56,135 bases of DNA from an uncultured Desulfobacteraceae bacterium (GTDB taxonomy: Bacteria > Desulfobacterota > Desulfobacteria > Desulfobacterales > UBA2156): the NCBI GenBank assembly GCA_964596535.1, contig CAZQUR010000007.1:1-56135 (forward strand), written 5' to 3'. The translations under genes and the position numbers were made by a program. The first letter of the stretch is position 1. Each line of letters begins with the position of its first letter. Shown piece by piece: positions 2,739-34,337 of the stretch. The notes beneath the pieces were generated by a model, which searched no databases, was not told where the DNA came from, and saw nothing but the letters and a program-made list of their open reading frames with translations.

Positions 2739-2775
2739 AACGGCTCCCTTTCTTTTCCCCGCTTTGATGATAAGA

Positions 2776-7571: not shown

Positions 7572-9830
7572 ATGATATTTTTCAAAACGCATTCCCGGCC
7601 CCGGGTTCTCCTGAAGACACTCCTGAAAGGGGGGATGCCCGTATCCATTCAGTTCGATCGTCTCAACCCCGGGATAGACAATATCCGGTATGACGTCCAC
7701 TTAAGCCCTGCTTTTCGTTCTGTCGCCGCAAAACTGATCTTTAAGGAGATTGTATCGGCCGCCCGTGCCCAGGATCGGGTCGATACGGGGAGTCCGTCCG
7801 AACGCGCGGATCTGCGCAATTCATTTAAGCGCGCCTGTCAGGACGTGCTGTTGGCGGGGATTCGACTTGCAAAGGATTTCAAGGAAAATCAAATTGATTT
7901 ACTGGCCCAGGTCGCGCTTTATAAATTCCTGATGCGGGAAATCCGGGAGCGATTCGATGCGCTCTGCGGCCATTTCAAGGAAAGCATTCGCGAAACGGAG
8001 CGTCCCCACGCCTTCAACGCCGGTGAAAATATTCGACTCAAACAGGCCCTTTCCGATATCTTCAAAAACCGGCAAGCCATCCTTTATACCGTTTCCAAAA
8101 AAGTCTTTCAGCGCGTGCAGGAAGTGCAGCAGGATCCCGTCGGAAAATATCGGGAATCGGTGTTCGGCGCCGACGCCCGCCTTCCCGAAGATCTTTTCAA
8201 CAATCCGTTGCTCTTCGTGGATGCATCCCCGGACGATACCTTCATGATCTCCGATTACCTGCTCTTCGGTCATCGATACGAAGACGCAAACCGGTATGAG
8301 GCGTTGATCGATTTGGTCAAGCAGCTTTTAATGTCCTGCAACCAAGATGCCGGAGAAAACGGCGCCCATTTGCTTCAGGACCCGGAATCCCTTTTGGATG
8401 AATGGATTGCGGATCCAAAGAATATCCATCGACTTTTTAATACACAAGCCTCCCTGGATCGGCCGGCGCCACCGGAGGGCCCGGGACATTCCGGGGACGA
8501 ACATTCCCATTGGAAACAGCGGGCCCTTATACAAAAACACCTGTTGCACTTTTTCTACCGGCGTTTCCAAAAACTGGGATTAATTTCCATCGTTTGCGCG
8601 TCTTATGAAATCCAACAGGGCTTTTCCGAATATTGCCCTCCCCTCACCCCACAGGCGGTTTTACAATTCGTGGTGAATCCGAAATCCCGGGACGCCACAC
8701 TGGATCGCCTTAAACGGCTTTCCCGGGCGGAAAACCGGATCTATTCGACAAAGGGATTGCATAAGATGATCAGACAGGTCCGCCGTCTTCGGCGCCGTCA
8801 AAAAGAAGCCTACTTGTTGCAATATCTCCAAGATCTTTCACGATACCACCGGGATCTGAAAAACGCCGTGCGCATCCGGGAGGCCATGGAGGCGGTCCAT
8901 TTGATTACGGAGGACAAAACCCTGAACCTTTCCCGTGAAAACAACCTCCTTCATGCGTTCCTGCTCCCGGAGGAGGAAACCGGCGAGCTGCGACCCGTCA
9001 TCAATCATGTGGTCCTCAAGGCCGACGTGCGCGGATCTACGGAAATCGTCCGGCAGATGAAGCACAAAGGCCTCAATCCGGCTTCTTTTTTCAGTCTCAA
9101 TTTTTTCGATCCCATCAACCAGCTTCTGGAAACCTACGAGGCCGAAAAAGTCTTCATTGAAGGAGACGCCATCATCCTCACCCTTCTGGAACGGGCCCAG
9201 GCGGCAAAACATCTCTTCACCGTGGCCCGGGCCTGCGGTCTGGCCATGGATATCCTGTCCGTGGTGCAACGGTGCAATTCCCGAAGCAAGAAGGCGGGGC
9301 TGCCGGTCATTGAAATCGGTATCGGCATCAGCTTTCAGGCCGGACCCCCCACCTATCTCTTCGACGGCGAGCGCCGCATCATGATTTCTCCGGCCATCAA
9401 CGAAGCCCATTCCCTGTGCCGGTGTGACAAACAGGTCGTGTATGACGGGGAGAAAAAGCCACAATACAACCTGATTGTTTTTGAAACCAAAGCGACTCAT
9501 CAGAACCCGGGCCAGGCAACCGACCCGTTCATGATTTACAATGTCAACGGCATCGCTTTAGACGCCGGGGGATTCCGGAAGCTCTCCCATGAGATCGACC
9601 TTCAGGTCCTGGATTCTAAAATCCCTGAGTTTGCGCCGCATCGTCTCCGGCTCCACGTGGGACGCTTTTTAAATCCACTCGGTATCAAACGGACACTTGT
9701 GGTCCGGGAAGCCCCCTTTTCAACTCAAGGGAGACGGCACGGCGTCGCGATGCCGGATCTTGATCGCGTTTACTACGAAATTTGCACTTACCCCCCCGTC
9801 CTGGCATGGGCGGAAAAAATACTCGCCTGA
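7572..9830 (+). CDS. Large helical protein with C-terminal class III nucleotidyl-cyclase-like domain
   Basis: VVLKADVRGST and FIEGDA supply the two metal-binding Asp; EIGIGI strand. Start uncertain (7509/7572/7635). Confidence 0.7.
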   Translation: MIFFKTHSRPRVLLKTLLKGGMPVSIQFDRLNPGIDNIRYDVHLSPAFRSVAAKLIFKEIVSAARAQDRVDTGSPSERADLRNSFKRACQDVLLAGIRLAKDFKENQIDLLAQVALYKFLMREIRERFDALCGHFKESIRETERPHAFNAGENIRLKQALSDIFKNRQAILYTVSKKVFQRVQEVQQDPVGKYRESVFGADARLPEDLFNNPLLFVDASPDDTFMISDYLLFGHRYEDANRYEALIDLVKQLLMSCNQDAGENGAHLLQDPESLLDEWIADPKNIHRLFNTQASLDRPAPPEGPGHSGDEHSHWKQRALIQKHLLHFFYRRFQKLGLISIVCASYEIQQGFSEYCPPLTPQAVLQFVVNPKSRDATLDRLKRLSRAENRIYSTKGLHKMIRQVRRLRRRQKEAYLLQYLQDLSRYHRDLKNAVRIREAMEAVHLITEDKTLNLSRENNLLHAFLLPEEETGELRPVINHVVLKADVRGSTEIVRQMKHKGLNPASFFSLNFFDPINQLLETYEAEKVFIEGDAIILTLLERAQAAKHLFTVARACGLAMDILSVVQRCNSRSKKAGLPVIEIGIGISFQAGPPTYLFDGERRIMISPAINEAHSLCRCDKQVVYDGEKKPQYNLIVFETKATHQNPGQATDPFMIYNVNGIALDAGGFRKLSHEIDLQVLDSKIPEFAPHRLRLHVGRFLNPLGIKRTLVVREAPFSTQGRRHGVAMPDLDRVYYEICTYPPVLAWAEKILA

Positions 9831-18259: not shown

Positions 18260-19663
18260 ATGAATCTGTTCGACCCCGTGTTTTTAGCCCGGCTCCAGTT
18301 CGCCTTCACTGTTTCCTTCCATATCCTGTTTCCCGCCTTTACCATCGGCATCGCCTCCTGGCTGGCCGTGGTGGAATGGCGCTGGCTGAAGACCGGAAAC
18401 CCCGTCTATGAAGCGGTCTATCGCATGTGGGTGAAGATTTTCGCCGTCAATTTCGGGATGGGGGTGGTTTCCGGCATCGTGCTGTCGTATCAGTTCGGCA
18501 CCAATTGGTCGGTATTTTCGGACCGCACGGGGAACGTCCTGGGCCCCCTCCTCGGATTTGAGGTGTTGACGGCATTCTTTTTGGAAGCCACGTTTTTGGG
18601 TGTCATGCTCTTCGGATGGAACCGCGTGGGAAAAAAGGTGCATTTCGCCGCCACGGTCATCGTGGCGACGGGGACGCTTATCAGCGCCTTCTGGATCCTG
18701 TCCGCCAACAGCTGGATGCAAACCCCCCAGGGGTTTACAATAGGGGCGGACGGGATCTTATATCCCACCGACTGGATTCAAATCATCTTCAATCCCTCTT
18801 TCCCTTACCGTTTTGTCCATATGGTCACGGCGGCCTATCTCACCACGGCTTTTGTGGTGGGCGGAATCGGGGCGTACTATCTCTGGCGCCGGCGTCATGA
18901 AAAACCGGCCCGGGTGATGCTGGGCATGGCCATGATCATGGCCGTGTTTGTGGCGCCACTGCAGCTTTTCTTCGGGGATCTCCACGGACTGAATACCTTT
19001 GAACATCAGCCGGCCAAGGTCGCGGCCATGGAAGGCCTTTGGGAAACCCGGCGGGGGGCGCCCCTCCTCCTCTTCGGGTGGCCGGATCAGGCGGCGGAGA
19101 CGACCCGTTTCGCCGTGGAAATCCCCAAGCTGTCGAGCCTCATCCTCACCCATGATCTTGACGGTGAAGTGAAGGGATTAAAGGATTTCCCGCCGGAAAA
19201 CCGCCCGCCGGCGGCCTGGGTCTTCTGGTCCTTTCGGATCATGGTGGGAATCGGCCTCCTCATGATCGCCACCGGCGTGGGGGCACTGATTTTATTCCTG
19301 CGCAAACGGCTCTTCGACACACGGTGGTTTCAGCTCTGGTGCATGGCCATGACCCCCGCCGGTTTTCTGGCCGTGTTAACGGGTTGGTGTGTCACGGAGA
19401 TCGGACGGCAACCGTTTCTGGTTTACCATGTGATGCGGACGGCGGAAGCGGTTTCTCCTGTGGGGGCCAAACCGATCATCCTGACCCTCGGCGCCTTTAT
19501 CCTGGTGTATGCCCTCATCTTTGGTGCGGGCACATTTTATATTTTGAAATTGATCGCAAAAGGCCCGGATATGCCGGATGATACGGCCTTCGGATCCCAT
19601 GGCCTCAAAGATCCCCTCCATTTTGGGAGGCAAGGATCATCCACAGGAGGTCCCCATGTTTAG
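18260..19663 (+). CDS. cydA: Cytochrome bd oxidase subunit I (short Q-loop)
   Basis: LARLQFAFTVSFHILFP, FFLEATF, QPAKVAAMEG and EIGRQP motifs. Confidence 0.96.
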   Translation: MNLFDPVFLARLQFAFTVSFHILFPAFTIGIASWLAVVEWRWLKTGNPVYEAVYRMWVKIFAVNFGMGVVSGIVLSYQFGTNWSVFSDRTGNVLGPLLGFEVLTAFFLEATFLGVMLFGWNRVGKKVHFAATVIVATGTLISAFWILSANSWMQTPQGFTIGADGILYPTDWIQIIFNPSFPYRFVHMVTAAYLTTAFVVGGIGAYYLWRRRHEKPARVMLGMAMIMAVFVAPLQLFFGDLHGLNTFEHQPAKVAAMEGLWETRRGAPLLLFGWPDQAAETTRFAVEIPKLSSLILTHDLDGEVKGLKDFPPENRPPAAWVFWSFRIMVGIGLLMIATGVGALILFLRKRLFDTRWFQLWCMAMTPAGFLAVLTGWCVTEIGRQPFLVYHVMRTAEAVSPVGAKPIILTLGAFILVYALIFGAGTFYILKLIAKGPDMPDDTAFGSHGLKDPLHFGRQGSSTGGPHV

Positions 19664-20675
19664 CTTCGAACATCTACTGGATCTGCCTCTGATCTGGTAC
19701 GGCCTCATCGGAACCGCCGTTTTGCTGTATGTCATCCTTGATGGATTCGATCTCGGGGTGGGGATCCTCTTTCCCTTTGCACCGTCGGATCGGTGCCGGG
19801 ACCGGATGATGAATTCCATCGCGCCGTTCTGGGACGGAAACGAGACCTGGCTCGTTTTGGGCGGCGGAGGGCTCTTCGCCGCATTTCCACTGGCCTATGC
19901 CGTCCTGATGCCGGCCTTTTATCTGCCCATCATCTTCATGCTCCTGGGACTTGTCTTCCGGGGAGTGGCGTTCGAATTCCGCTTCAAAGCCGAAGGGTGG
20001 GCGAGAAAAGCCTGGGATTACGCCTTCCACTTCGGATCGCTTTGTGCAGCCTTCATGCAGGGAGCGGTCCTGGGGACCTTTATCCAAGGGGTCGCCGTGA
20101 AGGGAAGGCATTTCGCGGGCGGCGCCTTGGATTGGATAAGCCCGTTCTCGCTCATGACGGGCGCCGCCCTGGTATTCGGTTACGCGTTGCTGGGCGCCAC
20201 GTGGGGAATCATGAAGACCGACGGCGAAACCCAGGAATGGTCTCGAAAGTGCGCCGAATATGTCTGCGTTTTCGTGGCGTTCTTCATGGTCCTGGTGAGT
20301 GTGACCACACCGTTTCTCCACGAGCGGTTCAGGACATTATGGCTCAGCCGCCCCAACCTGTTCTACCTGGCTCCTTTGCCGCTGCTGACACTGGGCATGT
20401 TCATCCTGCTGTGGCGGGACCTGGTTAAAAAAAACGAATACCGGCCGTTTTTCGTGAGCATCGGTATTTTTCTGACCCATTATCTGGGGCTGGGCATCAG
20501 CCTGTGGCCCTGGATCGTCCCTTTTCAGTTCACCCTGTGGGACGCGGCGGCGGCACCGGCATCGCAATCCCTTCTCCTGGCGGGGACCCTCTTTTTGCTC
20601 CCCCTGGTTTTGGGGTATACCGCGTACAGTTTTTATACCTTCCGGGGAAAGGCCTCCCACGAAGGGTATTATTGA
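19656..20675 (+). CDS. cydB: Cytochrome bd oxidase subunit II
   Basis: YVILDGFDLGVG, PFWDGNETWLV and RGVAFEFR motifs; overlaps the cydA stop. Confidence 0.96.
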   Translation: MFSFEHLLDLPLIWYGLIGTAVLLYVILDGFDLGVGILFPFAPSDRCRDRMMNSIAPFWDGNETWLVLGGGGLFAAFPLAYAVLMPAFYLPIIFMLLGLVFRGVAFEFRFKAEGWARKAWDYAFHFGSLCAAFMQGAVLGTFIQGVAVKGRHFAGGALDWISPFSLMTGAALVFGYALLGATWGIMKTDGETQEWSRKCAEYVCVFVAFFMVLVSVTTPFLHERFRTLWLSRPNLFYLAPLPLLTLGMFILLWRDLVKKNEYRPFFVSIGIFLTHYLGLGISLWPWIVPFQFTLWDAAAAPASQSLLLAGTLFLLPLVLGYTAYSFYTFRGKASHEGYY

Positions 20676-21343
20676 GGGTCGCCGATACCCGTCCGAATCC
20701 GGACCCGGGGACCGGCACCCCCTGCGCTTTGCCAATCCCGGGTCAGACACAGCCGGTCCAACAGATGCAGTTTCTTTTGCTTTTTTAACCGGTAATAAAT
20801 CATCATCCAGGCACACGGCGTGTGGGGGTCGATTTCACAGGCACCGTTCTGGGAGCCTCCGCACGGACCGTTGAGCAGGCTTTTGGCGCACCGGGCGATG
20901 GGGCAGATGCCGCCGGTGTGAGAAAGAAGGCAATCCCCGCACCCCCGGCAGACTTCCTGCCAGACGCCGGGCTTTTGGGACGCCCCGTAAAAGGTGGTGT
21001 TGAGGGCCGGAAGGACAGGCAGCGGCTCAAAAGCATCCCCGAGGGTCTGCACCCCTGCCCCGCAAGCCAAAGAGAGGACGGCGTCGATGTCCGGGGCCAC
21101 CTCCTGGTAAGCGCTCACCAAATCCTGCTCGCATTGCCGCAGAATGGATCCCGTCCTGAGTTCCGGGGGATCCTCCGCATAATGCATGGGATGGGAAAGC
21201 TCCCTGGCCAGTTGCCGCGCTTCGCGCTCTCCCCCGGAAAGACACACGGTGACGCAGCTTCCGCATCCCAGAACCAGGATCTTTCGGTAACCTGCGATCA
21301 TCGCGGCGATCTCGTCTGCGGGCTTCAAATCCCCGACGATCAT
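20669..21343 (-). CDS. metV: MetV-like protein (methylene-THF reductase C-terminal Cys-rich domain)
   Basis: GCGSCVTVC, RQCE, LACGAGVQ and CRGCGDCLLSHTGGICPIARCAKSLLNGPCGG motifs. Confidence 0.85.
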   Translation of the reverse strand: MIVGDLKPADEIAAMIAGYRKILVLGCGSCVTVCLSGGEREARQLARELSHPMHYAEDPPELRTGSILRQCEQDLVSAYQEVAPDIDAVLSLACGAGVQTLGDAFEPLPVLPALNTTFYGASQKPGVWQEVCRGCGDCLLSHTGGICPIARCAKSLLNGPCGGSQNGACEIDPHTPCAWMMIYYRLKKQKKLHLLDRLCLTRDWQSAGGAGPRVRIRTGIGDPQ

Positions 21344-21744
21344 GACGACACCTCTTCCTTTTTATGTTCCCCCGGGAGGTAAGCCGCCCGGGCCAGGCCG
21401 TCGAGGGCTTCCCGGTGCCTGGGGCAAAGGGGTTTCATCTCCCATTTTATTTTTTTCGATACGGTCTCTGAAAACGGTGCGGTATAAACGGGCGCGTTGC
21501 AAACGGTACACCGGAGGAGATCGAGCGTGGTCACGGCATCCCAGTCCCCATGCAGTAGATGCTGGAATTCGATGGCATCCTGGGGGCATACCCGCCAGCA
21601 GTTCCCGCACCGGGCGCATCGGGCCATGTTATGCAGCAGGGTGCGGTGATCCTGGGTATCCCTTGCACTCAAGGCGTCTGCGGGACAGTTTTCCACACAG
21701 GCCAGGCAGCCGTTGCACCGCTGGTTTACCCGGAAATAAGCCAT
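21340..21744 (-). CDS. 2[4Fe-4S] ferredoxin-like protein with an extra C-terminal Cys motif
   Basis: CNGCLACVENCP, CARCGNCWRVCP, then CTVC...CPRH; GGAG RBS. Confidence 0.85.
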   Translation of the reverse strand: MAYFRVNQRCNGCLACVENCPADALSARDTQDHRTLLHNMARCARCGNCWRVCPQDAIEFQHLLHGDWDAVTTLDLLRCTVCNAPVYTAPFSETVSKKIKWEMKPLCPRHREALDGLARAAYLPGEHKKEEVSS

Positions 21745-22223
21745 GGTCCGTTCTCCTTTACCCCGATCCTGATCCGCGCCGCATGACGGATGTGTCCATA
21801 CGGCACGCGTTCGACGGGGACATACGTCAAGGCGCCGGGATAACAGAACCGGACACATTGAGGATCCCCGCCGCAAAGATCGCATTTAAAAATTTTCTGC
21901 CGCAAGGGATCAAACCCCATGGCCCCGAAGGGGCACGCGGCCATACACATCCGGCAGCTGATGCACCGGCCGTAATCCACCATCACCCGATCAAGAAGGT
22001 TGTCCCGGTAAATGGCGTCCCTGGGACAGGCCGTCATGCAGGGGGCGTCTTCACATTGCCGGCAGGCCATCGGAACAAAAAAAGGTTCTCGGTTCCATTG
22101 GAATATCCGGATACGGGAAAGACGCGGATTCGCCGATGCGCTGCATCGGATGGCGCAAACGATTTCGCACGCCATGCAGCCCGTGCACCTTTGAGGATCG
22201 ATGTGGAGCATTTTATCGGTCAC
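21726..22223 (-). CDS. 4Fe-4S dicluster electron-transfer subunit (AOR small-subunit / DmsB type)
   Basis: CTGCMACEIVC, CRQCEDAPCMTACP, CISCRMCMAACP and KCDLCGGDPQCVRFC; paralog of 26961-27467. Confidence 0.9.
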   Translation of the reverse strand: MTDKMLHIDPQRCTGCMACEIVCAIRCSASANPRLSRIRIFQWNREPFFVPMACRQCEDAPCMTACPRDAIYRDNLLDRVMVDYGRCISCRMCMAACPFGAMGFDPLRQKIFKCDLCGGDPQCVRFCYPGALTYVPVERVPYGHIRHAARIRIGVKENGPWLISG

Positions 22224-23403
22224 GGCGTTTCTCCTGTCCGCGCATCTTATGCCAGAGGTCTTCGATGCCAAGCGTCCTGAACACCTTTAACCGCATCAAC
22301 GAACGCTTGTCCCATCCCTTGTACGCGGGGTTTTTCGGCCCGCGTGAAAACGGCGTTGTCCTGGAATCATATTGTTCGTCTCTTATTCGAATCAAGCGGT
22401 TCAGGGCGTGGACCCGAAACGCCGCATCCACCAGCTGGGCCTCGCTGAACACGAGCCCTGAAGCAAACCGGATCAGGGTTCCGATGACCTTCAGCACTTC
22501 GGTTTCGGATACGGTTTCCGGGGCCCGCAAAAACCCCAGTCCCAGACAATATGCGATGGACTCGAAAACCGCATCGCTCGGCAGGCGCATCCCTTTTTTT
22601 TCAAAGAAGCATCCCCTTTCTTGAAAAACCCCCGCTGCTGTTCTCCTTTCGCCGGTGTTCTTCGTCTCCGGGCCTGTCTTTGGAAGCCTCTCATGAAAAT
22701 GGGATGGATCCGGAAGCACGGTCCATTGTTCCAGAATTTCCTTTAAAAGGTCCAATAATTCCTGCGGGTGTTTCACAGGAAGATCTTGGGTGCCGGCGCA
22801 GATCACGGCTTTTACGTTTTTCGCCCCCAGGGACGCACCGGCGCCCGATGCACCGGAAACCCGTCCGTCATGGGTGACAACCGTTGCGCCGTGCAACCGG
22901 TTTTCTCCATCCGGACCGATGGCCAGCCCTCGGATGCTTCTGGGGCCTTCCTTCCTTCGGATACGTTCCAGGGATTCGGCGGCATCGGTTTTCTTCAACG
23001 CCCCGGCGCTTTCCAGCGTGATGCCGCCGTTTCGAAGGGCGATAAAGATCGGGCGTCTGGCTTTCCCGGTCAAAACGACATGATCGAACCCCGCCCACCG
23101 CATGCCGGCACCGAATCCGCCCGGAATCGCCGCGGATTCGAATCGGTACGTCAATGGAAACCGGGTGGAAAATGCAGCGCTTTCCATGGGGCCTCCCCCA
23201 AACCCGGAAAGGATCCCCGATCCCAAAACGATGGTATCGTTGGAATCCAAAGGCGGAACGCCGCTTTCAGAATGTCGAAGAAACAGATCGGCGTTGATCC
23301 CCTCACCGCCCAAAAAGCGGAATCGCCGGTCACGCGTGAGGGTTTCCACCGTCACATCTTTTTTGTTCAAATCGATATATCCGATTGTGCCTACAGGCTC
23401 CAT
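22213..23403 (-). CDS. Degenerate, internally deleted AOR-family protein (396 aa)
   Basis: AOR N-terminal domain recognisable (FLGGEG, GGFGAGMRWAGFDHVVLTGKA, IGPDGEN, LGAKNVKAV). C-terminal remnant aligns with the intact AOR; the CxxCxxxC region is absent. Good AAGGAG RBS. Confidence 0.75.
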   Translation of the reverse strand: MEPVGTIGYIDLNKKDVTVETLTRDRRFRFLGGEGINADLFLRHSESGVPPLDSNDTIVLGSGILSGFGGGPMESAAFSTRFPLTYRFESAAIPGGFGAGMRWAGFDHVVLTGKARRPIFIALRNGGITLESAGALKKTDAAESLERIRRKEGPRSIRGLAIGPDGENRLHGATVVTHDGRVSGASGAGASLGAKNVKAVICAGTQDLPVKHPQELLDLLKEILEQWTVLPDPSHFHERLPKTGPETKNTGERRTAAGVFQERGCFFEKKGMRLPSDAVFESIAYCLGLGFLRAPETVSETEVLKVIGTLIRFASGLVFSEAQLVDAAFRVHALNRLIRIRDEQYDSRTTPFSRGPKNPAYKGWDKRSLMRLKVFRTLGIEDLWHKMRGQEKRRDR

Positions 23404-23523
23404 CAGCGCTCCTTTTTCACTGTGGCGTCCCCCGCCCTGACGCGGGATTGCGGGAAGCATTCCGGCAAAACACATGCATCATCTTGAATTCGCCTAAAAA
23501 CCGAATCGATCCGTTTTCTCTTC

Positions 23524-24294
23524 TCACCGAGCGGCATCGGCTGTTTTGATCTTTTCACCGATCTCCCGCGCGGCGTAAAGGGTTTCTTCCACTAAAAGGG
23601 CCATTTTTTTCGCATCGATGCGGGGCTTGAATCCGACCACCCAAATGGCGGCGCTGAGGGTGCGGGTCCCCTGGATGGCGGCGGCCACGGCCCGGACACC
23701 GGGAATGTATTCCTCGTCGTCCGTGGCGTACCCGGTCCTGCGGGCCTTTCGGATTTCCTCCATGAATCGCATGGGATTGATGATGGTATGTTTCGTGAAA
23801 CGCGGAAGTCCTTTTATGCGGATCAACTCCGCCGCCTGTTCTTCGGGCATGGATGCCATGAAGACCTTCCCGGCGGCCCCGGCAAAAAGCGGAATCCGGG
23901 ATCCCACAGGAGCAGTGATCTTCAAGTCCTGCATGGATTCGACAATATCCAGGATGGTGAGATGCGCTTTGTTTCTCACCCCTAAAAAGACCGATTCCTG
24001 AACCCGTTCCATGAGGGTCTCCATGTCGGGCCGGGCGATCTCTTTGACATCAATGCGGGAATAAGCGGCCCGCCCCAGTTCGAAAAGGGTGACTCCCAGG
24101 GTGTAGGTCTTGGTTTTTGGATCCCGGACCACCGCCCCGAGGTCCTCCAGGGCATTCAAGATGCCGAAGACCGTGCTCTTGCCGATGGAAAGCTGTTTCG
24201 AAAGCTCGCTGATCCCCATCCCCTGCCGGTTCTTGGAAACGGCCCTGAGGATTTGGAACGCTTTTTTGACGGTCGGCGCCTGGTATGCATTCAA
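23524..24294 (-). CDS. IclR-family transcriptional regulator
   Basis: APTVKKAFQIL, HTH ISELSKQLSIGKSTVFGIL, GAAGKVF and GYATDDEEYIPGVRAVAA motifs. Confidence 0.93.
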   Translation of the reverse strand: MNAYQAPTVKKAFQILRAVSKNRQGMGISELSKQLSIGKSTVFGILNALEDLGAVVRDPKTKTYTLGVTLFELGRAAYSRIDVKEIARPDMETLMERVQESVFLGVRNKAHLTILDIVESMQDLKITAPVGSRIPLFAGAAGKVFMASMPEEQAAELIRIKGLPRFTKHTIINPMRFMEEIRKARRTGYATDDEEYIPGVRAVAAAIQGTRTLSAAIWVVGFKPRIDAKKMALLVEETLYAAREIGEKIKTADAAR

Positions 24295-24299
24295 TGTTC

Positions 24300-24315
24300 G
24301 TTCACCATAATGAAC
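24300..24315. promoter_or_regulatory. Palindromic operator 1 (GTTCACCATAATGAAC)
   Basis: GTTCA-N6-TGAAC between the minus-strand promoter (TTGACA at 24355-24350) and the iclR start codon. Confidence 0.7.
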
Positions 24316-24540
24316 AGATTTATTTATTCTTACCCTGAAGAATCGGTTTTGTCAACACGGATATGCATTTTTTTTACAAATTATACCACTTTGTATATCT
24401 TTGGTGGATCGGCAGCGACTGACGAGTCCTTGCCGGAAGCAATCATATCATCTACAACCTATTAATATAATATCTTAAATAACTTTTATGGATCTCCGAT
24501 TTCAAAATTTTCATCGCATTTTGGGTATGATGATTTTCTC

Positions 24541-24569
24541 TTGACAACGGGATTTATTTTGGTATGAAT
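24541..24569 (+). promoter_or_regulatory. Candidate sigma70 promoter of the AOR operon
   Basis: Perfect TTGACA followed 16 nt later by TATGAAT. Confidence 0.55.
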
Positions 24570-24582
24570 GGATCCGGGCTCT

Positions 24583-24598
24583 GTTCACTATAATGAAC
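24583..24598. promoter_or_regulatory. Palindromic operator 2 (GTTCACTATAATGAAC)
   Basis: 15/16 identical to operator 1; just downstream of the plus-strand promoter. Confidence 0.7.
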
Positions 24599-24692
24599 TG
24601 TTATGAGACAGGGTCGAAGGCCGCGGGGACGGACCCGAAGCCCGTGGAATCCGGAAACCGCCGTATCTCGACCCGTTCGGAAAGGAGTCACC

Positions 24693-24986
24693 ATGCCATT
24701 AGAAAACACGAAACCGTCCGCCGCCGAAGCGCTGAGACAAACACGGACGTTCGGAAAGGTCCGATGCCACAACCCGAGTTGCATGGGAAGAATCCAACCG
24801 GAACCGGGCGCCCGGCTGGTGAAATGTGCCACCTGCGGAATGGAATATCGTTTGTATTGGGTCACTCCGACACTCCCGCGAATCCGGGGTCCGGTCTGGG
24901 ATGTAAACCGGGAAATCGCCGAAAAAACCTTTGCGGAAAAACAGGCCGTCACAAAGCCGACGGCAGGGAAAATGAAAGGAAAATAA
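24693..24986 (+). CDS. Small zinc-ribbon-like hypothetical protein
   Basis: GGAAAGGAG RBS; CHNPSC...CATC; stop 1 nt before the AOR ATG. Confidence 0.75.
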   Translation: MPLENTKPSAAEALRQTRTFGKVRCHNPSCMGRIQPEPGARLVKCATCGMEYRLYWVTPTLPRIRGPVWDVNREIAEKTFAEKQAVTKPTAGKMKGK

Positions 24987-24987
24987 A

Positions 24988-26928
24988 ATGTCGCTGGACA
25001 GGAAAATCGCCCACATCAATCTGACCACCGGGGATATCGATGTCAAACCCATTCCGTTGAATGTCCGAAAACAATTCATCGGGGGAAGGGGGCTCGATGC
25101 CTATCTGTTGTATAATTATGCTCCCAAAGGGGTGGATCCCCTGGCACCCGAGAATCCCCTGATCATCAGCGCCGGTCTGCTGACGGCCACCTGTGCCTCC
25201 GCTACGGCACGAACCCATGTCATGGCCAAATCCCCGTTGACCGGGTTACTGGGAAGCACCAACATGGGAGGGTTTTTCGCCCCCGAACTGGCCTGGGCCG
25301 GATTCCACCATCTGGTCATCACGGGAAAGGCCGACAAACCGGTGTATCTTTTCATTCACAACGCAAACATCGAGATCCGGGATGCATCGGGCCTCTGGGG
25401 AAAGACCACCACCGATACCCAGTGGGCCGTCCGGGAAGCACTCGGGGATGACGAAGTCAAAAGCCTTGTCATCGGTCCGGCAGGGGAAAACCGGGTCCGT
25501 TTTGCCAATGTCATGACCGGGATCAAAAATTCCGGGGGGCGGACCGGTATGGGCTGCGTCATGGGTGCCAAGAATCTCAAGGCTGTGGCCGCCCGGGGAA
25601 CCTTGGATATCAAGATCGCCCACCCCATGGATGCGCTGGAATATAACAAGCGCTTCATCGACCAGATTACCAGCGCAAAAGTGAACCAGACCCAGGGGAC
25701 CCTGGGAACGCCTTTCATCTGGGGCGCCACCAATTGCTGGGGCGGCCTCCGGACGCGGAATTTCCAGTACAACCAGCTGGAATACGCCGATGACATCGAA
25801 CCGGAACGGCTGGATGAAATCGCCACGGAAACCATCGGGCCCCATCATATGACAGGGTGCTTTGCCTGCCAGGTGCATTGCCGCGCCCAATACAAAATCC
25901 CGTCCGGACCGTATGCCGGCAAATACGACGAGGGTCCGGAATACACCTCCTTGGGGGCCTTCGGCGCGGAACCGGGATGCACCTCCGCCGAGACCGTCTT
26001 GACCGGGAATCACCTGGTGAATCAATTCGGTATGGACAACCTGGAAACCGGTTCCATGATCGCCTGGGCCATGGAGCTCTACGAGGAAGGGATCCTGACG
26101 GAGAAACACACCGACGGACTCGATCTGCGGTTTGGAAATGACGCGGCGCTCCTGGAGATGGTGGACCGCATCTGCTACCGGAAAGGCTGGCTGGGGGACA
26201 CCCTGGCCGACGGCGGGATTCCCGCGGCGGAAAAAATCGGCAAGAATGCCTTTGATTCCCTGATCCAGGTCAAGGGGATGAACAACCTCCATTCCGATGA
26301 ACGCGCCACTCCGGCCCTGGCCCTGAACATCGCCACCGCCTCCCGGGGGAGCGATCATCTGCGCAGCCGCCCCGCCATCGACTTGTATCATCTCCCCGAA
26401 GGGGTTTTACGGAAAATTTACGGGACGCCGATTCCGTATGACGGCCCGTTGAGCTCCGAACACACTTCCTACGAAGGAAAGGCATGGATGGTCTTCTGGC
26501 AGGAAAACTGCTACATGGCCGTGGACTGCCTCGGGATTTGCAAATATCACACCACCTTCCTCGGGGCCACCCTCCCCAACTTCGAAGACTGGCCGAAAGT
26601 CATCTACTACAATACGGGTCTTGAATTCACGCCGGAAGAGCTGTGGACCATTGCCGAGCGGTGCAACATGATCGAACGCATGTATAATATCCGGGAAGGA
26701 TTGTCCCGGAACGATCTGAAAAAGGGGGACACCCTGAACCATCGATACTTTGACGAACCCTGCAAGCGGGGGGCACCGGACGTGATCGGCATGAGCATCG
26801 ATCGCGAGAAATTCGAAAAGATGCTCGATGAATTTTACGATTACAAGGGATTGGACAAAAACGGAAAGCCAAAAGCGGCGACGCTGAAGCGCCTGGGGCT
26901 GGATCGCGAGCCCTCCCGGCTGCTGTAG
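24988..26928 (+). CDS. aor: Aldehyde:ferredoxin oxidoreductase family (W-bis-pterin) protein
   Basis: KSPLTG, GGRTGMGCVMGAKNLKA, GCFACQVHC, GPEYTS, GMDNLETG, RGSDHLR and DCLGIC motifs; 646 aa. Confidence 0.93.
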   Translation: MSLDRKIAHINLTTGDIDVKPIPLNVRKQFIGGRGLDAYLLYNYAPKGVDPLAPENPLIISAGLLTATCASATARTHVMAKSPLTGLLGSTNMGGFFAPELAWAGFHHLVITGKADKPVYLFIHNANIEIRDASGLWGKTTTDTQWAVREALGDDEVKSLVIGPAGENRVRFANVMTGIKNSGGRTGMGCVMGAKNLKAVAARGTLDIKIAHPMDALEYNKRFIDQITSAKVNQTQGTLGTPFIWGATNCWGGLRTRNFQYNQLEYADDIEPERLDEIATETIGPHHMTGCFACQVHCRAQYKIPSGPYAGKYDEGPEYTSLGAFGAEPGCTSAETVLTGNHLVNQFGMDNLETGSMIAWAMELYEEGILTEKHTDGLDLRFGNDAALLEMVDRICYRKGWLGDTLADGGIPAAEKIGKNAFDSLIQVKGMNNLHSDERATPALALNIATASRGSDHLRSRPAIDLYHLPEGVLRKIYGTPIPYDGPLSSEHTSYEGKAWMVFWQENCYMAVDCLGICKYHTTFLGATLPNFEDWPKVIYYNTGLEFTPEELWTIAERCNMIERMYNIREGLSRNDLKKGDTLNHRYFDEPCKRGAPDVIGMSIDREKFEKMLDEFYDYKGLDKNGKPKAATLKRLGLDREPSRLL

Positions 26929-26960
26929 ACCGATTCCCATTTATAGGAAAGGAGGGGTTC

Positions 26961-27467
26961 ATGGAAACCTCAGGAAAAGTATTGACCATTGATCATGAAA
27001 AATGCACGGGTTGCCGGCTCTGTGAACTGGTGTGCGCCGTCAAGCATGACGGTGTTTCCAACCCCATGCGCAGCCGCATCCGGGTCATGAAATGGGAAGC
27101 CGAGGGGCTTTACATCCCCATGTCGTGCCAGCAGTGCGAAGACGCCCCCTGCCTGAAAGCCTGCCCCGTGAAGGCCATATCCCGAAATGCGGCGTTTGAG
27201 CGGGTGGAAATCGATTACGACCTCTGCATCGGGTGTCGCACGTGCGTTTCGGTGTGCCCTTTCGGTGCCATGGGTTTCAATCCCGTGGAGAAAAAAGTGT
27301 TCAAGTGCGATCTGTGCGACGGGGATCCCCAGTGCGTCCGTTTCTGTGAAGTCAAGGCCGTGGATTACGTGGATGCCGCCGATGTGAGCCTCAAGAAGAA
27401 AAAAGCCGCCGCCCATCGCATCTCCGTGGCCGGAAAGGAAGCGGCGTCTTTCCATGCGGCCCTTTAA
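26961..27467 (+). CDS. 4Fe-4S dicluster AOR small subunit
   Basis: Four Cys clusters: CTGCRLCELVC, CQQCEDAPCLKACP, CIGCRTCVSVCP and KCDLCDGDPQCVRFC. Confidence 0.92.
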   Translation: METSGKVLTIDHEKCTGCRLCELVCAVKHDGVSNPMRSRIRVMKWEAEGLYIPMSCQQCEDAPCLKACPVKAISRNAAFERVEIDYDLCIGCRTCVSVCPFGAMGFNPVEKKVFKCDLCDGDPQCVRFCEVKAVDYVDAADVSLKKKKAAAHRISVAGKEAASFHAAL

Positions 27468-27523
27468 GGGACCGTTTTTCTTTTTGCAAAGGGCATTCGA
27501 TGGAAATTCGGATGCCCTTTGCG

Positions 27524-27796
27524 TCAGCCGCCGGCAAGCATCAGCGCGATGTGGATCACGTCTTTGTTTTTCACCGGTTTTTTCAGTTCATCCGGATAGG
27601 CGCTTTCCATGTTCACATAGATTTCGATGGTGTTTTTCAGCCGGCCCTTCTCATCGAAAAGTACGGATTGCATCTTTGGATACCGCGCGATCAGTGCGTT
27701 GAAGCATTCTCCCACGGTCTTGCCTTTCACCGGGGCCTGCTTTGCGCCTTCCGTAAACTGCCGATGGGTCTTATGAATGGCGATTTGGATGCTCAC
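27524..27796 (-). CDS. MoaD/ThiS-family sulfur carrier
   Basis: 90 aa ending LAGG; AAGGAG RBS; adjacent to AOR, as is typical for pterin cofactor maturation. Confidence 0.88.
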   Translation of the reverse strand: MSIQIAIHKTHRQFTEGAKQAPVKGKTVGECFNALIARYPKMQSVLFDEKGRLKNTIEIYVNMESAYPDELKKPVKNKDVIHIALMLAGG

Positions 27797-27863
27797 GCAT
27801 AACTCCTTTCAGTCAAACGCTGTATACGTCTTCCTGTGCGTAAAAGCGGCCGCCCTTTCCAGG

Positions 27864-28940
27864 TTATCCCGATTTCAAGGGTTGAATCAGGACCCGGTGG
27901 ATCTCTTTTTCAGTCCTCGAGAGGTCTTTTTTCTCTTGGTCTGAAAGAAAAATATCCATCAGGCGCACGGCCTTGTCCCGGGCGTTTTCATATCCGACAC
28001 GGACGGTCTCCGCGATGTGATCCCAGTTCCGTTCATCGACAAACCTTTCAAAGGCGCCGGCCATCTCCGGAAAAAGGGATTTGCGAAGACCGTTCCAGGA
28101 GGCCATAAAAAGCGCCAGGGAACCGATCCGTTGCTCCTTGACGATAAACGACAGCCGCCCCAAAGGGCTTGTATCGGCAAGGATGTCTTTCAGGGACCTT
28201 GAGAAAAGTTCGATGACCGTGTGCGGGAATGCCGCCAAAAGTTTTCGCCAGGCAATCCGATCCAGGGTTGGATCCAGGATTTCGCCGAGTTCATGAAAAA
28301 GAAAGGTTTCCGTTTCGCTTTCCACGATTTCGGAGAATCGCGTTTTCAGCGAGAGTACATCCCCCTTTTTTACCTGAAAGCTCTCCATCGCGAGATCCAG
28401 GGCTTTTTTGCCGGAGCGGTTCACAAAAAAAATCAGGTCCCAGAGGAAGGCTTTCACCATCTCGGTCCGGACGTAAATGCAATCTTCCTGGGAAAAGGCG
28501 GGAATCGACATGAGATCCCGGGCCAGTTCCTTTCCGGTGATGAATATGCGGCATCCAAGGATCTTCCGGGTTTCTTTGAGAACCGCGAGGAAAAAAGTGG
28601 GAGCCAGTCCCTGTGACAAACCCGCACCATAGACCATCCCCGCAGGTTCAAGGATGCGATTGATTCCGGTTACGTCGAAGGGTTCAAAGGCTTGCCCCTG
28701 GAGACGAATGGGACCATATTCCCGGTTTTCAAGGCCCTCCCAGGCATTTTCCGTCTCTTCGATCCACCTTAACAGCCGATCCGGGGCTTCTTCCACCCAG
28801 GGCTCCAGGCCTTTTTCCCATTTGTAAAGTCCGCGGAGCCGCAATGCCAGTTGGCATACCGAGAACATGGATGCATGGCGTGCGTCGGTGACGGCACAGT
28901 TTCGGGCCACTTGTGCGGCGATGGAATCCGGATCGGGCAT
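27864..28940 (-). CDS. Conserved hypothetical protein (Sfum_1244-like)
   Basis: NCAVTDARHA.MFSVCQLALRLR.LYKWE, PTFFLA, ELARDL and HELGE; family recognised from memory only. Confidence 0.6.
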   Translation of the reverse strand: MPDPDSIAAQVARNCAVTDARHASMFSVCQLALRLRGLYKWEKGLEPWVEEAPDRLLRWIEETENAWEGLENREYGPIRLQGQAFEPFDVTGINRILEPAGMVYGAGLSQGLAPTFFLAVLKETRKILGCRIFITGKELARDLMSIPAFSQEDCIYVRTEMVKAFLWDLIFFVNRSGKKALDLAMESFQVKKGDVLSLKTRFSEIVESETETFLFHELGEILDPTLDRIAWRKLLAAFPHTVIELFSRSLKDILADTSPLGRLSFIVKEQRIGSLALFMASWNGLRKSLFPEMAGAFERFVDERNWDHIAETVRVGYENARDKAVRLMDIFLSDQEKKDLSRTEKEIHRVLIQPLKSG

Positions 28941-29071
28941 GAGATTTTCCTTTTTGGGTTTGTACCCGTCGGACGTATGGAGTTGCCCAGGGAATCTCTT
29001 TTCTTGGCGCTTTTATATTTTTATGATATAAGGATTCTCACCTTGTTTTTCAAGGACCCAAGGAGCGGGGT

Positions 29072-29551
29072 ATGGTTGAGCTGGCAATGCTGAAAGGGAA
29101 AAGAGTCCTCATTGTGGACGATGAACCGGACATCCTCGAAATGTTGTCAGAAGAACTGGAAACATGCGAACTCCATCAAGCCCGAAATTTCGAATCCGCC
29201 AAGAAAGTTCTGGAAAAGGAAAACTTTGATTGTGTGGTCCTCGATATCATGGGGGTCCGCGGTTACGAACTCCTTGAAATCGCCACTTCTCTGAAAATCC
29301 CTGCGGTGATGTTGACAGCCCATGCATTGAGTCCGGACCACTTCATCCGTTCCATCCGATCCGGGGCCCACTGCTATGTCCCGAAAGACAAAATCGTGGA
29401 CATCAATTTTTATGTCTGGGATGCCATCCGCGCCCATCGGCAGCACGAAAAACAACCCGGGCGGTGGTATGATCGGCTCAAGTCCTTTTTCGACAAAAAA
29501 TTCGGCCGCGACTGGGGGGATCCTTTTGAACCGGATCGTAAAAAAGAGTAG
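29072..29551 (+). CDS. Single-domain response regulator
   Basis: VLIVDDEPD, VLDIMG, MLTAH and PK motifs. Confidence 0.9.
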   Translation: MVELAMLKGKRVLIVDDEPDILEMLSEELETCELHQARNFESAKKVLEKENFDCVVLDIMGVRGYELLEIATSLKIPAVMLTAHALSPDHFIRSIRSGAHCYVPKDKIVDINFYVWDAIRAHRQHEKQPGRWYDRLKSFFDKKFGRDWGDPFEPDRKKE

Positions 29552-29558
29552 CGGCGAA

Positions 29559-30251
29559 TCAATACTGAAGTGCGGTGACCAGGAAATAGACCCCTACCCC
29601 GATCATCAGAAGGGAACCGGCCCGATAGATCCAATTTCGAGACTGAAGCCATCCTAAACGCACCAGGCGGGCCACCAGGATCAGGGGCAAGACCGTCCCG
29701 AGACCGAATGCCGCCATCAGACCCGCGCCGGAAAACGCGCCGATAAGGGCATGTTGCGTTTCCATTCCGATCCGGGCGGCACCGATGAGTGCCGTATAAA
29801 TCGGCCCGCACGGCAGGAGGCCGAGCAAGAGTCCCAAGGGAAAATACGCTGCTGTTTTGCGGGTGCCGGCGATTTTCGAATATCCTTTTGAAACCCATGA
29901 TCCCGATGCGCCGGAATTATCCGCACGGAAACCCTTTGGGAGCCACCCCCCCGTGACGAAACCCATGGCAATCATCAGGATGCCGGCGAAGACGAGGACG
30001 CCTTTCTGGAGGCCGGCGATGTTGGCCGTCACCCGGACGAAAGAACCGGTGAACCCCAAAAGACCCCCCAGGACCGTATAGGTCACAATACGACCCGCGT
30101 TGTACAGCAAATGGGGCGTCCAGATGGATCGTCCGGTGATGCCCAGGGACAAGGAAACCACGATGGGACCGCACATGCCGATGCAATGGCCGAATCCCAC
30201 CGTAAATCCGGTGGAAAGATAAACCAATAACAGGGTTTCAGTAACGGACAT
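29559..30251 (-). CDS. DsbD_2 / TauE-like membrane protein (metal or cytochrome biogenesis)
   Basis: GHCIGMCGP, YNAGRIVTY, GLLPCG and FGLGT motifs. Confidence 0.85.
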   Translation of the reverse strand: MSVTETLLLVYLSTGFTVGFGHCIGMCGPIVVSLSLGITGRSIWTPHLLYNAGRIVTYTVLGGLLGFTGSFVRVTANIAGLQKGVLVFAGILMIAMGFVTGGWLPKGFRADNSGASGSWVSKGYSKIAGTRKTAAYFPLGLLLGLLPCGPIYTALIGAARIGMETQHALIGAFSGAGLMAAFGLGTVLPLILVARLVRLGWLQSRNWIYRAGSLLMIGVGVYFLVTALQY

Positions 30252-32843: not shown

Positions 32844-34337
32844 ATGAAATCGCTTCGTTGTTCTCTTTTCATCTGCACCGTTTTCTTTCTGAACGCCCCG
32901 GCCTTTTCAACCGAGACCCCCATCAGTGACGCGACTTTGGAATGCCTGGACTGTCACGTCCTCCTCCATCCCGGTATCGTCGCTGAATGGAAAAAGAGCC
33001 GCCACGCCCAATCAACGCCGGAGGGCGCCGCTTCGGTGGAGGGCTTATCCCGGAAAGTATCCGCCGAATCGATCCCGGACGCCCTTAAAACAACTGCCGT
33101 GGGGTGTGCAGAATGCCACGGTCTCCGTCCCGACGCCCACAAAGATCGCTTTGAACATAACGGTTACACCCTGCACATCGTGGTCAGCCCGAAAGACTGC
33201 AGTGTCTGTCACCCGGTGGAAACAGACCAGTTTTCCAAAAACCTCATGGCCCATGCCTATGCCAACCTTGCCGAAAACGCGTTGTATCAAAAACTCGAAC
33301 ACAGCATATTGGGAAAACCCGCCTTCAAAGACGATCGAATCCGCCAAGACGTCACTGACGACGGAACCCGGGAAGAAGCCTGTTATTACTGCCACGGTAC
33401 CCGGCTGGAAATGGCGGGGATCGAGACCCGTGATACGGAACTGGCCGGCGAACTCGAATTTCCGATGATTCGCGGATGGCCCAATCAGGGGGTCGGCCGC
33501 ATCAATCTCGACGGCAGTAAAGGGTCCTGTTCTGCATGCCACACCCGTCACGCCTTTTCCATCGAAACCGCCCGCAAACCCTATACATGCAAAGAGTGTC
33601 ATGTGGGGCCCGATGTACCGGCCTTCAAAGTGTATGAATCGAGCAAGCACGGGAACCTTTTTTCCTCTCACCAGGCCGCGTGGAATTTCCAAAACGTCCC
33701 TTGGACCATCGGCAAAGATTTTACGGCGCCCACCTGTGCGGCCTGCCATATCAGCCTCTTGGTCAATGCAGACGGTGCGGTGGTCTCCAAACGTTCCCAT
33801 CAAATGAACGACCGTCTTCCCTGGCGTCTATTCGGTCTGATTTATGCGCATCCGCACCCCGCAACCCCGGATACCACGCAGATTCGAAACAAAGACGGGT
33901 TGCCGCTCCCGACGGATTTCAACGGCGGGTTCGCGACGGCGCACCTCATCAGCGAAGAAGAGCAGCACCGCCGCAAAGCCGCCATGCAGGCCGTCTGTCT
34001 CAACTGCCATGGCACCACATGGGTCCAAGGGTTTTGGACCCGGTTTGAAAACACCCTGGTCCGCACCAATGCCGATATCCGGACGGCCACGCAACTCATG
34101 GAAACCATCTGGGAAGAAGGGCTGGCCGACGGAAAAGAAAATCCCTTTGACGAGGCCGTAGAGAAAAAATGGAGCGATATCTGGCTGTTTTACGCCAATA
34201 CCATTCGATTTGCTTCCGCCATGGGATGCGGCGGGGATTATGCGGTCTTTGCGGACGGTCGATACATGATGGCCCGGTCCCTGGCGGACTTGGCCGACTG
34301 GTGGAGGCTGCGAAAGGAGCTGCCGATTGCACCGTAA
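32844..34337 (+). CDS. Octaheme cytochrome c, hydroxylamine oxidoreductase family
   Basis: Signal peptide; 8 CxxCH (CLDCH, CAECH, CSVCH, CYYCH, CSACH, CKECH, CAACH, CLNCH); WPNQGVGRINLDGS, SKHG and APTCAACH motifs. Confidence 0.88.
   Translation: MKSLRCSLFICTVFFLNAPAFSTETPISDATLECLDCHVLLHPGIVAEWKKSRHAQSTPEGAASVEGLSRKVSAESIPDALKTTAVGCAECHGLRPDAHKDRFEHNGYTLHIVVSPKDCSVCHPVETDQFSKNLMAHAYANLAENALYQKLEHSILGKPAFKDDRIRQDVTDDGTREEACYYCHGTRLEMAGIETRDTELAGELEFPMIRGWPNQGVGRINLDGSKGSCSACHTRHAFSIETARKPYTCKECHVGPDVPAFKVYESSKHGNLFSSHQAAWNFQNVPWTIGKDFTAPTCAACHISLLVNADGAVVSKRSHQMNDRLPWRLFGLIYAHPHPATPDTTQIRNKDGLPLPTDFNGGFATAHLISEEEQHRRKAAMQAVCLNCHGTTWVQGFWTRFENTLVRTNADIRTATQLMETIWEEGLADGKENPFDEAVEKKWSDIWLFYANTIRFASAMGCGGDYAVFADGRYMMARSLADLADWWRLRKELPIAP

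Follow-up and report, generated by a model that had tools for sequence, protein, structure and literature searches.

The window analysed here is a 56,135-nt stretch of an uncultured Desulfobacteraceae genome (contig CAZQUR010000007.1, assembly GCA_964596535.1). It harbours two divergent operons, both of which code for proteins related to the tungsten-containing aldehyde ferredoxin oxidoreductases (AORs). The right operon encodes a small Cys-rich protein, an intact AOR large subunit (WorL) and its polyferredoxin partner AorA. The left operon encodes an IclR-family regulator, a 396-residue paralogue of AOR that we call AOR*, a paralogue of AorA (AorA*), a small Fe-S protein (FeS2) and a MetV paralogue. 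Judging from its sequence, AOR* should be unable to hold a tungsten bis-pterin or a [4Fe-4S] cluster and to act as an AOR-type enzyme. Nevertheless, its gene is under weak purifying selection; it is clearly constrained and is not a decaying pseudogene. We think it rather probable that AOR* has no catalytic function and serves AorA* as a structural partner or as a cap, within an accessory module that would carry away the electrons of the catalytic AOR-AorA pair. In evolutionary terms, AOR* is best read as a subunit that is eroding and can be dispensed with, and not as an essential one. The main genes are as follows.

AOR*, 22213..23403, minus strand: 396-residue paralogue of the AOR/WorL large subunit; ATG start codon 7 bases 3' of AAGGAG; AFOR_N as the only Pfam domain
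AorA*, 21726..22211, minus strand: paralogue of WorS/AorA-type polyferredoxins; four Cys motifs, 16 Cys
FeS2, 21340..21744, minus strand: 134 residues; two motifs of the [4Fe-4S] type; C-terminal tail with Cys; Pfam Fer4_7/Fer4
MetV paralogue (DUF5981), 20669..21343, minus strand: last gene of the left operon; PF12225, E 1.8e-35; no adjacent metF gene
IclR-family regulator, 23524..24294, minus strand: first gene of the left operon; HTH_IclR PF09339 (E 4e-13) and IclR_C PF01614 (E 1.1e-36)
Intact AOR (WorL), 24988..26928, plus strand: 646 residues; AFOR_N and AFOR_C; CxxCxxxC present; match to 1aor_A, E 2e-94
AorA (WorS), 26961..27467, plus strand: 168-residue four-cluster polyferredoxin, partner of the intact AOR

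A preliminary description of the window, made from its sequence alone, had given the positions of these genes correctly and had recognized both the short AOR paralogue and its paralogous partner. By BLAST, AOR* and AOR are 32% identical over 222 residues of the N-terminal domain (E 1e-38), and AorA* and AorA 50% identical over 162 residues (E 6e-62). The locus had been viewed as mirror-image modules flanking one IclR regulator. The iclR gene does lie between the modules, but it is the first gene of the left operon and not a neutral spacer. The strong ribosome-binding site, the open frame and the translational coupling of AOR* were found as described, with the AAGGAG site and a TAAaATG junction between AOR* and AorA*. 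Further down the left operon, AorA* and FeS2 overlap by 19 nt, and FeS2 and MetV are joined by ATGA.

Two trivial explanations for the short gene were ruled out. The region 21300-24400 is found in one piece in Logan contigs of each of four runs, which belong to one study that is possibly the source of the DNA, with one base difference from the window and no indels. The short AOR* gene is therefore not an assembly artefact. Nor is it a frameshifted full-length gene, as the gap between iclR and AorA* holds only 1.2 kb.

AOR* lacks the cofactor-binding half of the enzyme

The AFOR_N domain (PF02730/IPR013983) matches AOR* with an E value of 9.5e-42 over 199 of its 199 profile positions, while no match of AFOR_C (PF01314/IPR001203), which corresponds to domains 2 and 3, was found in AOR* at E<=0.01. 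As had been claimed, alignment with its relatives showed that AOR* retains the N-terminal domain and ~130 C-terminal residues, and that ~250 central residues are gone, including the CxxCxxxC motif. Of domains 2 and 3, no more than the end of domain 3 has a counterpart in AOR*, on which the last ~130 residues superpose. The likeness of this part to AOR is weak by BLAST (E 0.007) and is confirmed by the fold comparison presented below.

The [4Fe-4S] cluster of AORs is bound by the CxxCxxxC motif and by a fourth Cys in a DxxGxC motif. AOR* has three Cys residues in total and no CxxCxxxC, and the DCLGIC motif of the intact AOR is YCLGLG in AOR*. The motifs of domain 1 are altered as well, from KSPLT to RFPLT and from GRTGMG to GASGAG, with replacement of the Lys/Ser and Arg residues, in agreement with the changes pointed out in the preliminary description. 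Because domain 2 and half of domain 3 are lost, AOR* is predicted to bind neither the tungsten bis-pterin nor the cluster, which was also the earlier expectation. By the defining features of the family, AOR* is a homologue and not a member in the functional sense.

The small subunits show a peculiarity of their own. A 42-nt stretch of AorA* (22023-22064) recurs unchanged in AorA, on the other strand (about 27126-27167), and appears as a joint of opposite strands in the contigs of three runs. The two paralogues may have undergone gene conversion, or a cluster motif may be strongly constrained.

AOR* is under weak purifying selection

The ratio of nonsynonymous to synonymous substitution rates (dN/dS) was calculated for four species pairs. 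Between the window and locus L007, whose AOR* proteins are 84% identical, dN/dS is 0.34 for AOR* and 0.05 for both AOR and AorA; the values for the other genes are 0.13 (FeS2), 0.16 (IclR), 0.22 (MetV) and 0.38 (AorA*). The AOR* genes of this pair differ by 72 nonsynonymous and 63 synonymous changes, which departs from neutrality with a Fisher p of 4e-9. For the pair L011 and L012, AOR* and AOR have dN/dS values of 0.29 and 0.07, respectively. The corresponding values are 0.24 and 0.05 for L009 and L010, and 0.16 and 0.04 for L014 and L015, with a dS of about 1.9 for AOR* in these last two pairs. Within AOR*, dN/dS between the window and L007 is 0.26 for the N-domain and 0.42 for the C-terminal part.

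No frame breaks were found in AOR* in any of the four pairs, and the frame is open in 14 sampled species. All five other genomes of the window's genus carry an AOR* gene, with identities of 39-84% and open frames of 418-547 residues. A decaying pseudogene, for which a dN/dS of about 1 had been put forward as the signature, is not what the values of 0.16-0.34 indicate. The left module had been called 'dead': this is apt for catalysis but not for the gene.

A cofactor-less family with convergent shortening

Orthologues with the same deletion, proposed earlier as a way to judge the gene, do exist. A word-index search yielded two of the same length as AOR*, at 89% and 84% identity, a 296-residue fragment of the same short architecture at 51% identity, and relatives of 519-531 residues at about 50%. 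When a profile was searched against 1.84 billion representative sequences, 8090 matches were collected at E<=0.001. The top of this list comprises about 30 sequences of 347-571 residues, each representing a cluster at 50% identity, that are devoid of the CxxCxxxC motif. Nearly all full-length matches (about 600-700 residues) have this motif near residue 285, and a few (e.g. P0045, P0067 and P0074) lack the exact pattern.

In a FastTree phylogeny of 105 rows, 28 cluster-less rows form one clade with a support of 100, and two smaller cluster-less groups are found elsewhere. The cofactor-less AOR-like proteins with which AOR* groups span 320-571 residues. In an IQ-TREE phylogeny of 46 rows, built solely from the columns common to all forms, the short state (<420 residues) cannot be explained by fewer than three changes on branches of SH-aLRT>=95. 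The alignment revealed that each short lineage has had the same middle segment removed and the same two parts retained. We regard this convergent trimming to one minimal core as the strongest indication that selection acts on the core. In addition, motifs conserved specifically in the family (GWDKRSL...IEDLWP) survive in AOR*. The idea of a retained pseudo-enzyme, put forward in the preliminary description for a single gene, is thus supported by dN/dS, by a conserved family and by the confident AOR-like fold described below. What goes beyond it is that there is a whole family, marked by convergent reduction to one core and by frequent complete loss.

One relative, G009, has an AOR* match at C201:6534-7685 (38% identity over residues 7-391) with one TAA codon inside it, and this copy may be broken. 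The family also reaches other phyla, since locus L042, a Dehalococcoidales record, carries at 1660-3747 a gene for a 522-residue cluster-less AOR-like protein followed by an AorA-like gene, outside of the Desulfobacterales. No FeS2 or MetV genes were seen in the 4.6 kb of this locus.

The forms of 509-571 residues retain both KSPLT and GRTGMG, which are absent from the window's subclade. Together with the proximity of a ThiS/MoaD-like gene, this would be in line with AOR* and its longer relatives being chaperones or stores, which would keep a pterin or tungsten cofactor until its delivery to the catalytic AOR. We give this idea little credit. The AOR* of the window has lost exactly the residues in question (RFPLT, GASGAG), as well as the two helical domains with which AORs of solved structure bind the pterins. 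Moreover, it is coupled to electron-transfer genes and not to genes for cofactor synthesis, and the parts of the family reviews that we consulted name no chaperone homologous to its client.

Predicted fold of AOR* and predicted association with AorA*

The AlphaFold2 model of AOR*, based on a 79-row alignment, has a mean pLDDT of 89 and a pTM of 0.90, and is poorly defined only at the linker (residues 240-261) and at residues 351-353. A Foldseek search with this model gave nine matches at E<=0.001, all nine to AOR-family chains. In VIA-align comparisons, 364 of the 396 residues of AOR* superpose on the WorL chain 9mqx_D (Z 40.7, rmsd 3.1). Z scores of 28.8-39.6 were obtained with six more AOR-family chains, including 8c0z_A and, at Z 28.8, 4z3w, and the next match is at Z 4.3. 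In the model, the N-domain and the C-terminal helices are placed as in a real AOR from which the middle has been excised.

We also modelled AOR* together with AorA*. The complex model obtained a score of 0.79 (median of three runs), compared with 0.01 for the best of three controls; this mark is reached by 116 of 157 solved complexes and by 2 of 215 mismatched pairs. The runs have >=87% of contacts in common, with a pLDDT of the partner >=81. The predicted contacts involve residues 67-71, 99, 103, 149, 154-156, 179, 205-221 and 314 of AOR*, and residues 11-38, 103 and 118-122 of AorA*. The modelled interface is thus formed almost entirely by the N-domain of AOR* and the N-terminal part of AorA*, which corresponds to the canonical WorL-WorS face. 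For the WorABCSL complex, the structure of which is solved, WorS is described as packing on WorL through its N-terminal domain (PMC12318220).

The best PDB matches of AorA* are nanowire-forming small subunits, 8c0z_C (E 9e-35) and 9mqx_E (E 8e-34). In WorS/AorA polyferredoxins, a C-terminal helix mediates the formation of nanowires. After its last Cys motif, AorA* has a tail of about 30 residues that does not align to the tails of these two proteins.

Synteny and repeated loss of AOR*

A survey anchored on AOR covered 80 loci from a set of species-representative genomes. The order cluster-less AOR*, AorA-like, FeS2 and MetV was found in 10 of them, and one more locus is cut after AorA*. The divergent intact AOR-AorA genes are present in all nine of those loci for which upstream DNA is available. 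According to the preliminary description, a full-length gene at this place in relatives would speak against a retained pseudo-enzyme. Only L021 and L025, which are distant loci with a different layout, have an intact AOR gene directly in front of AorA-FeS2-MetV; at the syntenic position, the relatives have cluster-less forms of 320-567 residues or nothing. We considered whether the arrangement of L021 and L025 might be the ancestral one, but this was not supported: in a tree of MetV and FeS2, their rows are nested and not basal, and the support of the root is only 70.

A second survey was anchored on MetV. Out of 301 genomes of the class, 44 gave matches to it at E<=1e-68. It took in 39 of the 43 genomes other than that of the window, the four left out being the weakest matches, at 47-49% identity. 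The arrangements are as follows.

Cluster-less AOR* (320-555 residues) before AorA*-FeS2-MetV: 14/39
No AOR*, AorA*-FeS2-MetV after iclR or the intergenic region, divergent intact AOR: 12/39
AorA-like, FeS2 and MetV, no AOR-family gene in the fetched DNA: 5/39
AorA* missing as well: 5/39
Contig too short to judge: 3/39

A form of AOR* with 365 residues is carried by G112, a genome in a single contig. FeS2 is syntenic in all the MetV-anchored loci, and the 16 Cys residues of AorA* are all invariant in 24 aligned rows. In a tree of MetV and FeS2, the loci with and without AOR* are interleaved, and well-supported branches force the AOR*-less state to have arisen twice or more, independently. Five loci (L136, L140, L134, L111 and L131) have FeS2-MetV without an AorA* gene beside iclR and the intact AOR-AorA genes, which represents a still more reduced form.

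A MetV protein without MetF

The MetV of the window is the third one of its genome, 44-46% identical to two copies that are adjacent to MetF. The only two matches to methylenetetrahydrofolate reductase (MTHFR, MetF) in this genome are found on other contigs, each beside one of the other DUF5981 genes; these canonical MetV-MetF pairs are on contigs C19 (about 20859-22096) and C99 (about 8471-9738) of the genome, G000. As both MetF genes pair with the other two MetV copies, the MetV of the window appears from gene content to serve something other than MTHFR. It is highly conserved, with many invariant Cys residues in 13 rows, and a sequence search returned no solved relative.

MetV has been described as the Fe-S subunit of MetVF (PMC8760232, PMC8515935), and reduced ferredoxin has been proposed as the donor for MetVF enzymes (PMC8760232). 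By analogy, this link with ferredoxin would fit a role of the window's MetV as an electron outlet, without identifying the acceptor.

Regulation and neighbouring genes

Further features of the locus lie between and beside the two operons.

Palindromic box GTTCA-N6-TGAAC, copy 1, 24300..24315, no strand: beside the start of iclR; candidate IclR operator
Palindromic box GTTCA-N6-TGAAC, copy 2, 24583..24598, no strand: upstream of the small open reading frame (ORF) and of AOR
Cys-rich small ORF (CxxxxC...CxxC), 24693..24986, plus strand: 97 residues; own GGAG site; stop codon 1 nt before the AOR start codon
ThiS/MoaD-like gene, 27524..27796, minus strand: Pfam ThiS, NCBIfam MoaD family; syntenic in relatives; of the kind called WorX in PMC13328260

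The window contains two GTTCA-N6-TGAAC sites, against 0.06 expected, and boxes of this form are found in the divergent intergenic region of most of the 21 loci searched. They are probably IclR operators. Because these conserved boxes sit in the divergent intergenic region, both operons probably answer to the same IclR protein. The iclR gene is kept at the equivalent position in relatives; in several of them, the boxes are present although iclR has another location or there is no AOR* gene.

The location of AOR* directly downstream of iclR in the same operon could hint at a ligand sensor, the AOR remnant binding an aldehyde or an acid and modulating the regulator. We consider this most improbable. 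The domains deleted from AOR* are those that contain the substrate channel and the active site in AORs, and IclR has a ligand-binding domain of its own, IclR_C. In addition, the boxes are retained in the relatives in which iclR is located elsewhere or AOR* is absent. Of the two other functions considered in the preliminary description, those of a maturation factor or of a sensing factor, neither has gained support.

The 97-residue Cys-rich ORF precedes AOR in 19 of the 21 loci (tblastn; 36-97% identity) and has no Pfam family above the cut-off. In this lineage of AORs, it could be a small subunit, or a factor for assembly, that has gone unrecognized. The ThiS/MoaD-like gene probably has a role in cofactor biosynthesis. 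It adjoins a gene of the DUF6866/Sfum_1244 family (27864-28940, minus strand, 358 residues), which is syntenic in L009 and L010. On the other side of the locus, the cydAB genes for a cytochrome bd oxidase (18260-20675, plus strand) are convergent with the MetV gene, and the same surroundings are found in L009, L010 and L122, which belong to the same genus. The window also codes for a 497-residue multihaem cytochrome c (32844-34337, plus strand), the translation of which shows a signal-like N-terminus and eight CxxCH haem-binding motifs. An Rfam scan of positions 19000-30000 at E<=1 gave no match, and hence disclosed neither a Moco/Wco riboswitch nor any other known RNA.

Proposed role of AOR*

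We propose that AOR* descends from a duplicated tungsten-AOR large subunit (WorL) and has lost domain 2 and half of domain 3. What remains is an N-terminal domain braced by C-terminal helices, which in the model folds like the matching part of AOR. Based on the complex model, AOR* may have been kept because it still occupies the WorL-binding face of the co-translated AorA*. AorA*, FeS2 and the MetF-less MetV would constitute an accessory electron-transfer module, which shares the two palindromic boxes, probably IclR operators, with the divergent AOR-AorA operon. Most likely, this module would pass on the electrons of the catalytic AOR, the physical link between the modules and the direction of electron flow being our inference. 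A scaffold mechanism for AOR* is plausible. The asymmetric AOR/AOR* complex wired to MetV that was suggested in the preliminary description would have its basis in the conserved divergent synteny and in the palindromic boxes that the operons share.

Several observations weigh against this proposal. In 17 of the 39 MetV-anchored loci, AOR* is absent while AorA*-FeS2-MetV persists, and the 16 Cys residues of AorA* are all kept in 27 further rows, including those of species without AOR*. As the operon and all 16 Cys persist where AOR* is absent, AorA* can work without it. AOR* is also the fastest-evolving gene of the cluster, with identities of 39-51% within one genus compared with about 90% for AOR, and the dN/dS of its linker (0.59 between the window and L007) is indistinguishable from 1. 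As to the complex model, its score may be a memory of solved WorL-WorS complexes (8c0z, 9mqx, 6x1o and 4z3w), and within the N-domain, the conservation of the predicted interface does not exceed that of the remaining residues (Mann-Whitney p 0.52).

The absence of the gene from these 17 loci means that AOR* is dispensable over evolutionary time. Any indispensable role of AOR*, as might be read into the preliminary description, is therefore weakened, also in view of the ordinary conservation of the interface. The same facts might be explained if AOR* were a functionless relic, a redundant duplicate drifting to loss and constrained only against toxic misfolding or polar effects on the coupled genes. 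Consistent with such drift are the higher dN/dS of AOR* (0.16-0.34 versus 0.04-0.07 for AOR), the stepwise shortening from 567 to 320 residues up to full loss, the TAA codon within the G009 match and, again, the interface. Nevertheless, we regard a mere relic as improbable. The dN/dS of AOR* is significantly below 1 and remains low with an intact frame even at a dS of about 1.9, and in the independent deletions, at least three in number, it was always the same middle segment that was taken out, with the N-domain and the C-terminal helices preserved in frame. Furthermore, the AOR* model is compact and confident, and the family motifs survive.

Alternatively, AOR* might be a placeholder that controls stoichiometry: AOR* and the catalytic AOR would be competitors for the WorL site of AorA*, so that AOR* would set the number of catalytic units feeding the MetV module, or it would shield the first cluster of AorA*. 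The complex model does put AOR* on the canonical WorL site, and the species devoid of AOR*, in which the divergent catalytic AOR is the only one available, keep the full WorL-facing N-terminal part of AorA* and every one of its clusters. This possibility overlaps with that of a structural partner, and as a separate explanation we find it unlikely.

Pursuing the proposal of a structural partner, we tentatively envisage that the two divergent operons code for one heteromeric enzyme outside of the five WOR classes. AOR-AorA would dock on an AorA*-FeS2-MetV outlet, with AOR* as a dummy filling the WorL site of AorA*. If so, AOR* would be the first protein of the tungsten AOR family to have no cofactor and a purely structural role. 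The stages found across Desulfobacterales, from 571 residues to nothing, would then record the passage of a catalytic subunit to a scaffold and finally to a discarded part.

If AOR* is structural, WOR complexes would gain an architecture with a MetV-like electron outlet, which bears on the choice of electron carrier by these enzymes of sulfate reducers. The family would also provide a well-sampled series of pseudo-enzyme evolution, with duplication, cofactor loss, convergent trimming and loss. In practical terms, automatic annotation names these genes 'aldehyde ferredoxin oxidoreductase', and AOR counts therefore overstate the catalytic capacity of Desulfobacterales genomes.

Comparison with known systems

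In the classification published in 2026, WORs are divided into five classes according to their subunits, and WorL proteins are selected by the presence of both InterPro domains; in the parts that we consulted, none of the five has the AOR*/FeS2/MetV composition (PMC13328260). A 2025 review states that 'all known members contain' a metal-bis-pterin cofactor (PMC12096430). A clade devoid of the cofactor-binding half is invisible to surveys that require both Pfam/InterPro domains, and the parts of these two articles that we consulted make no mention of a cofactor-less WorL or a MetV-type partner (PMC13328260, PMC12096430). Among the papers searched, no cofactor-less AOR pseudo-enzyme or MetV-linked AOR module was found, although the gene-neighbourhood supplements of PMC13328260 and PMC12318220 might list such cases.

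The closest parallels are AorAB(C) of Aromatoleum aromaticum (8c0z) and WorABCSL of Acetomicrobium mobile (9mqx). They too combine WorL with a four-cluster WorS/AorA polyferredoxin, the N-terminal part of which packs on WorL, and further subunits take up the electrons. The locus of the window differs by its second WorL copy, predicted to be without cofactor and cluster, and by its extra subunits, namely a small Fe-S protein and a MetV paralogue instead of the FAD subunit AorC or the BfuABC-type WorABC. BamBC of class II benzoyl-CoA reductase (4z3w) similarly associates an AOR-family large subunit with a ferredoxin-like small subunit in a larger electron-transfer complex, as summarized in the classification (PMC13328260). 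However, BamB is catalytic, with a tungsten-pterin and a cluster, and its partner modules are Hdr- and Bfu-like. As for the MetVF enzymes of acetogens, the window's MetV is a full-length DUF5981 homologue, but it has no adjacent MetF and its neighbours are AOR-type proteins.

The fate of AOR* itself is best likened to that of the relics found in complex I. NuoG has a molybdopterin-like domain and NuoD derives from the large subunit of [NiFe]-hydrogenases, and both are devoid of cofactor. Like AOR* as we propose it, they are formerly catalytic subunits without a metal site that serve as structural parts of an Fe-S electron-transfer assembly. They belong to other enzyme families, and they are universally conserved and essential, in contrast with AOR*, which is variable in length and often lost.

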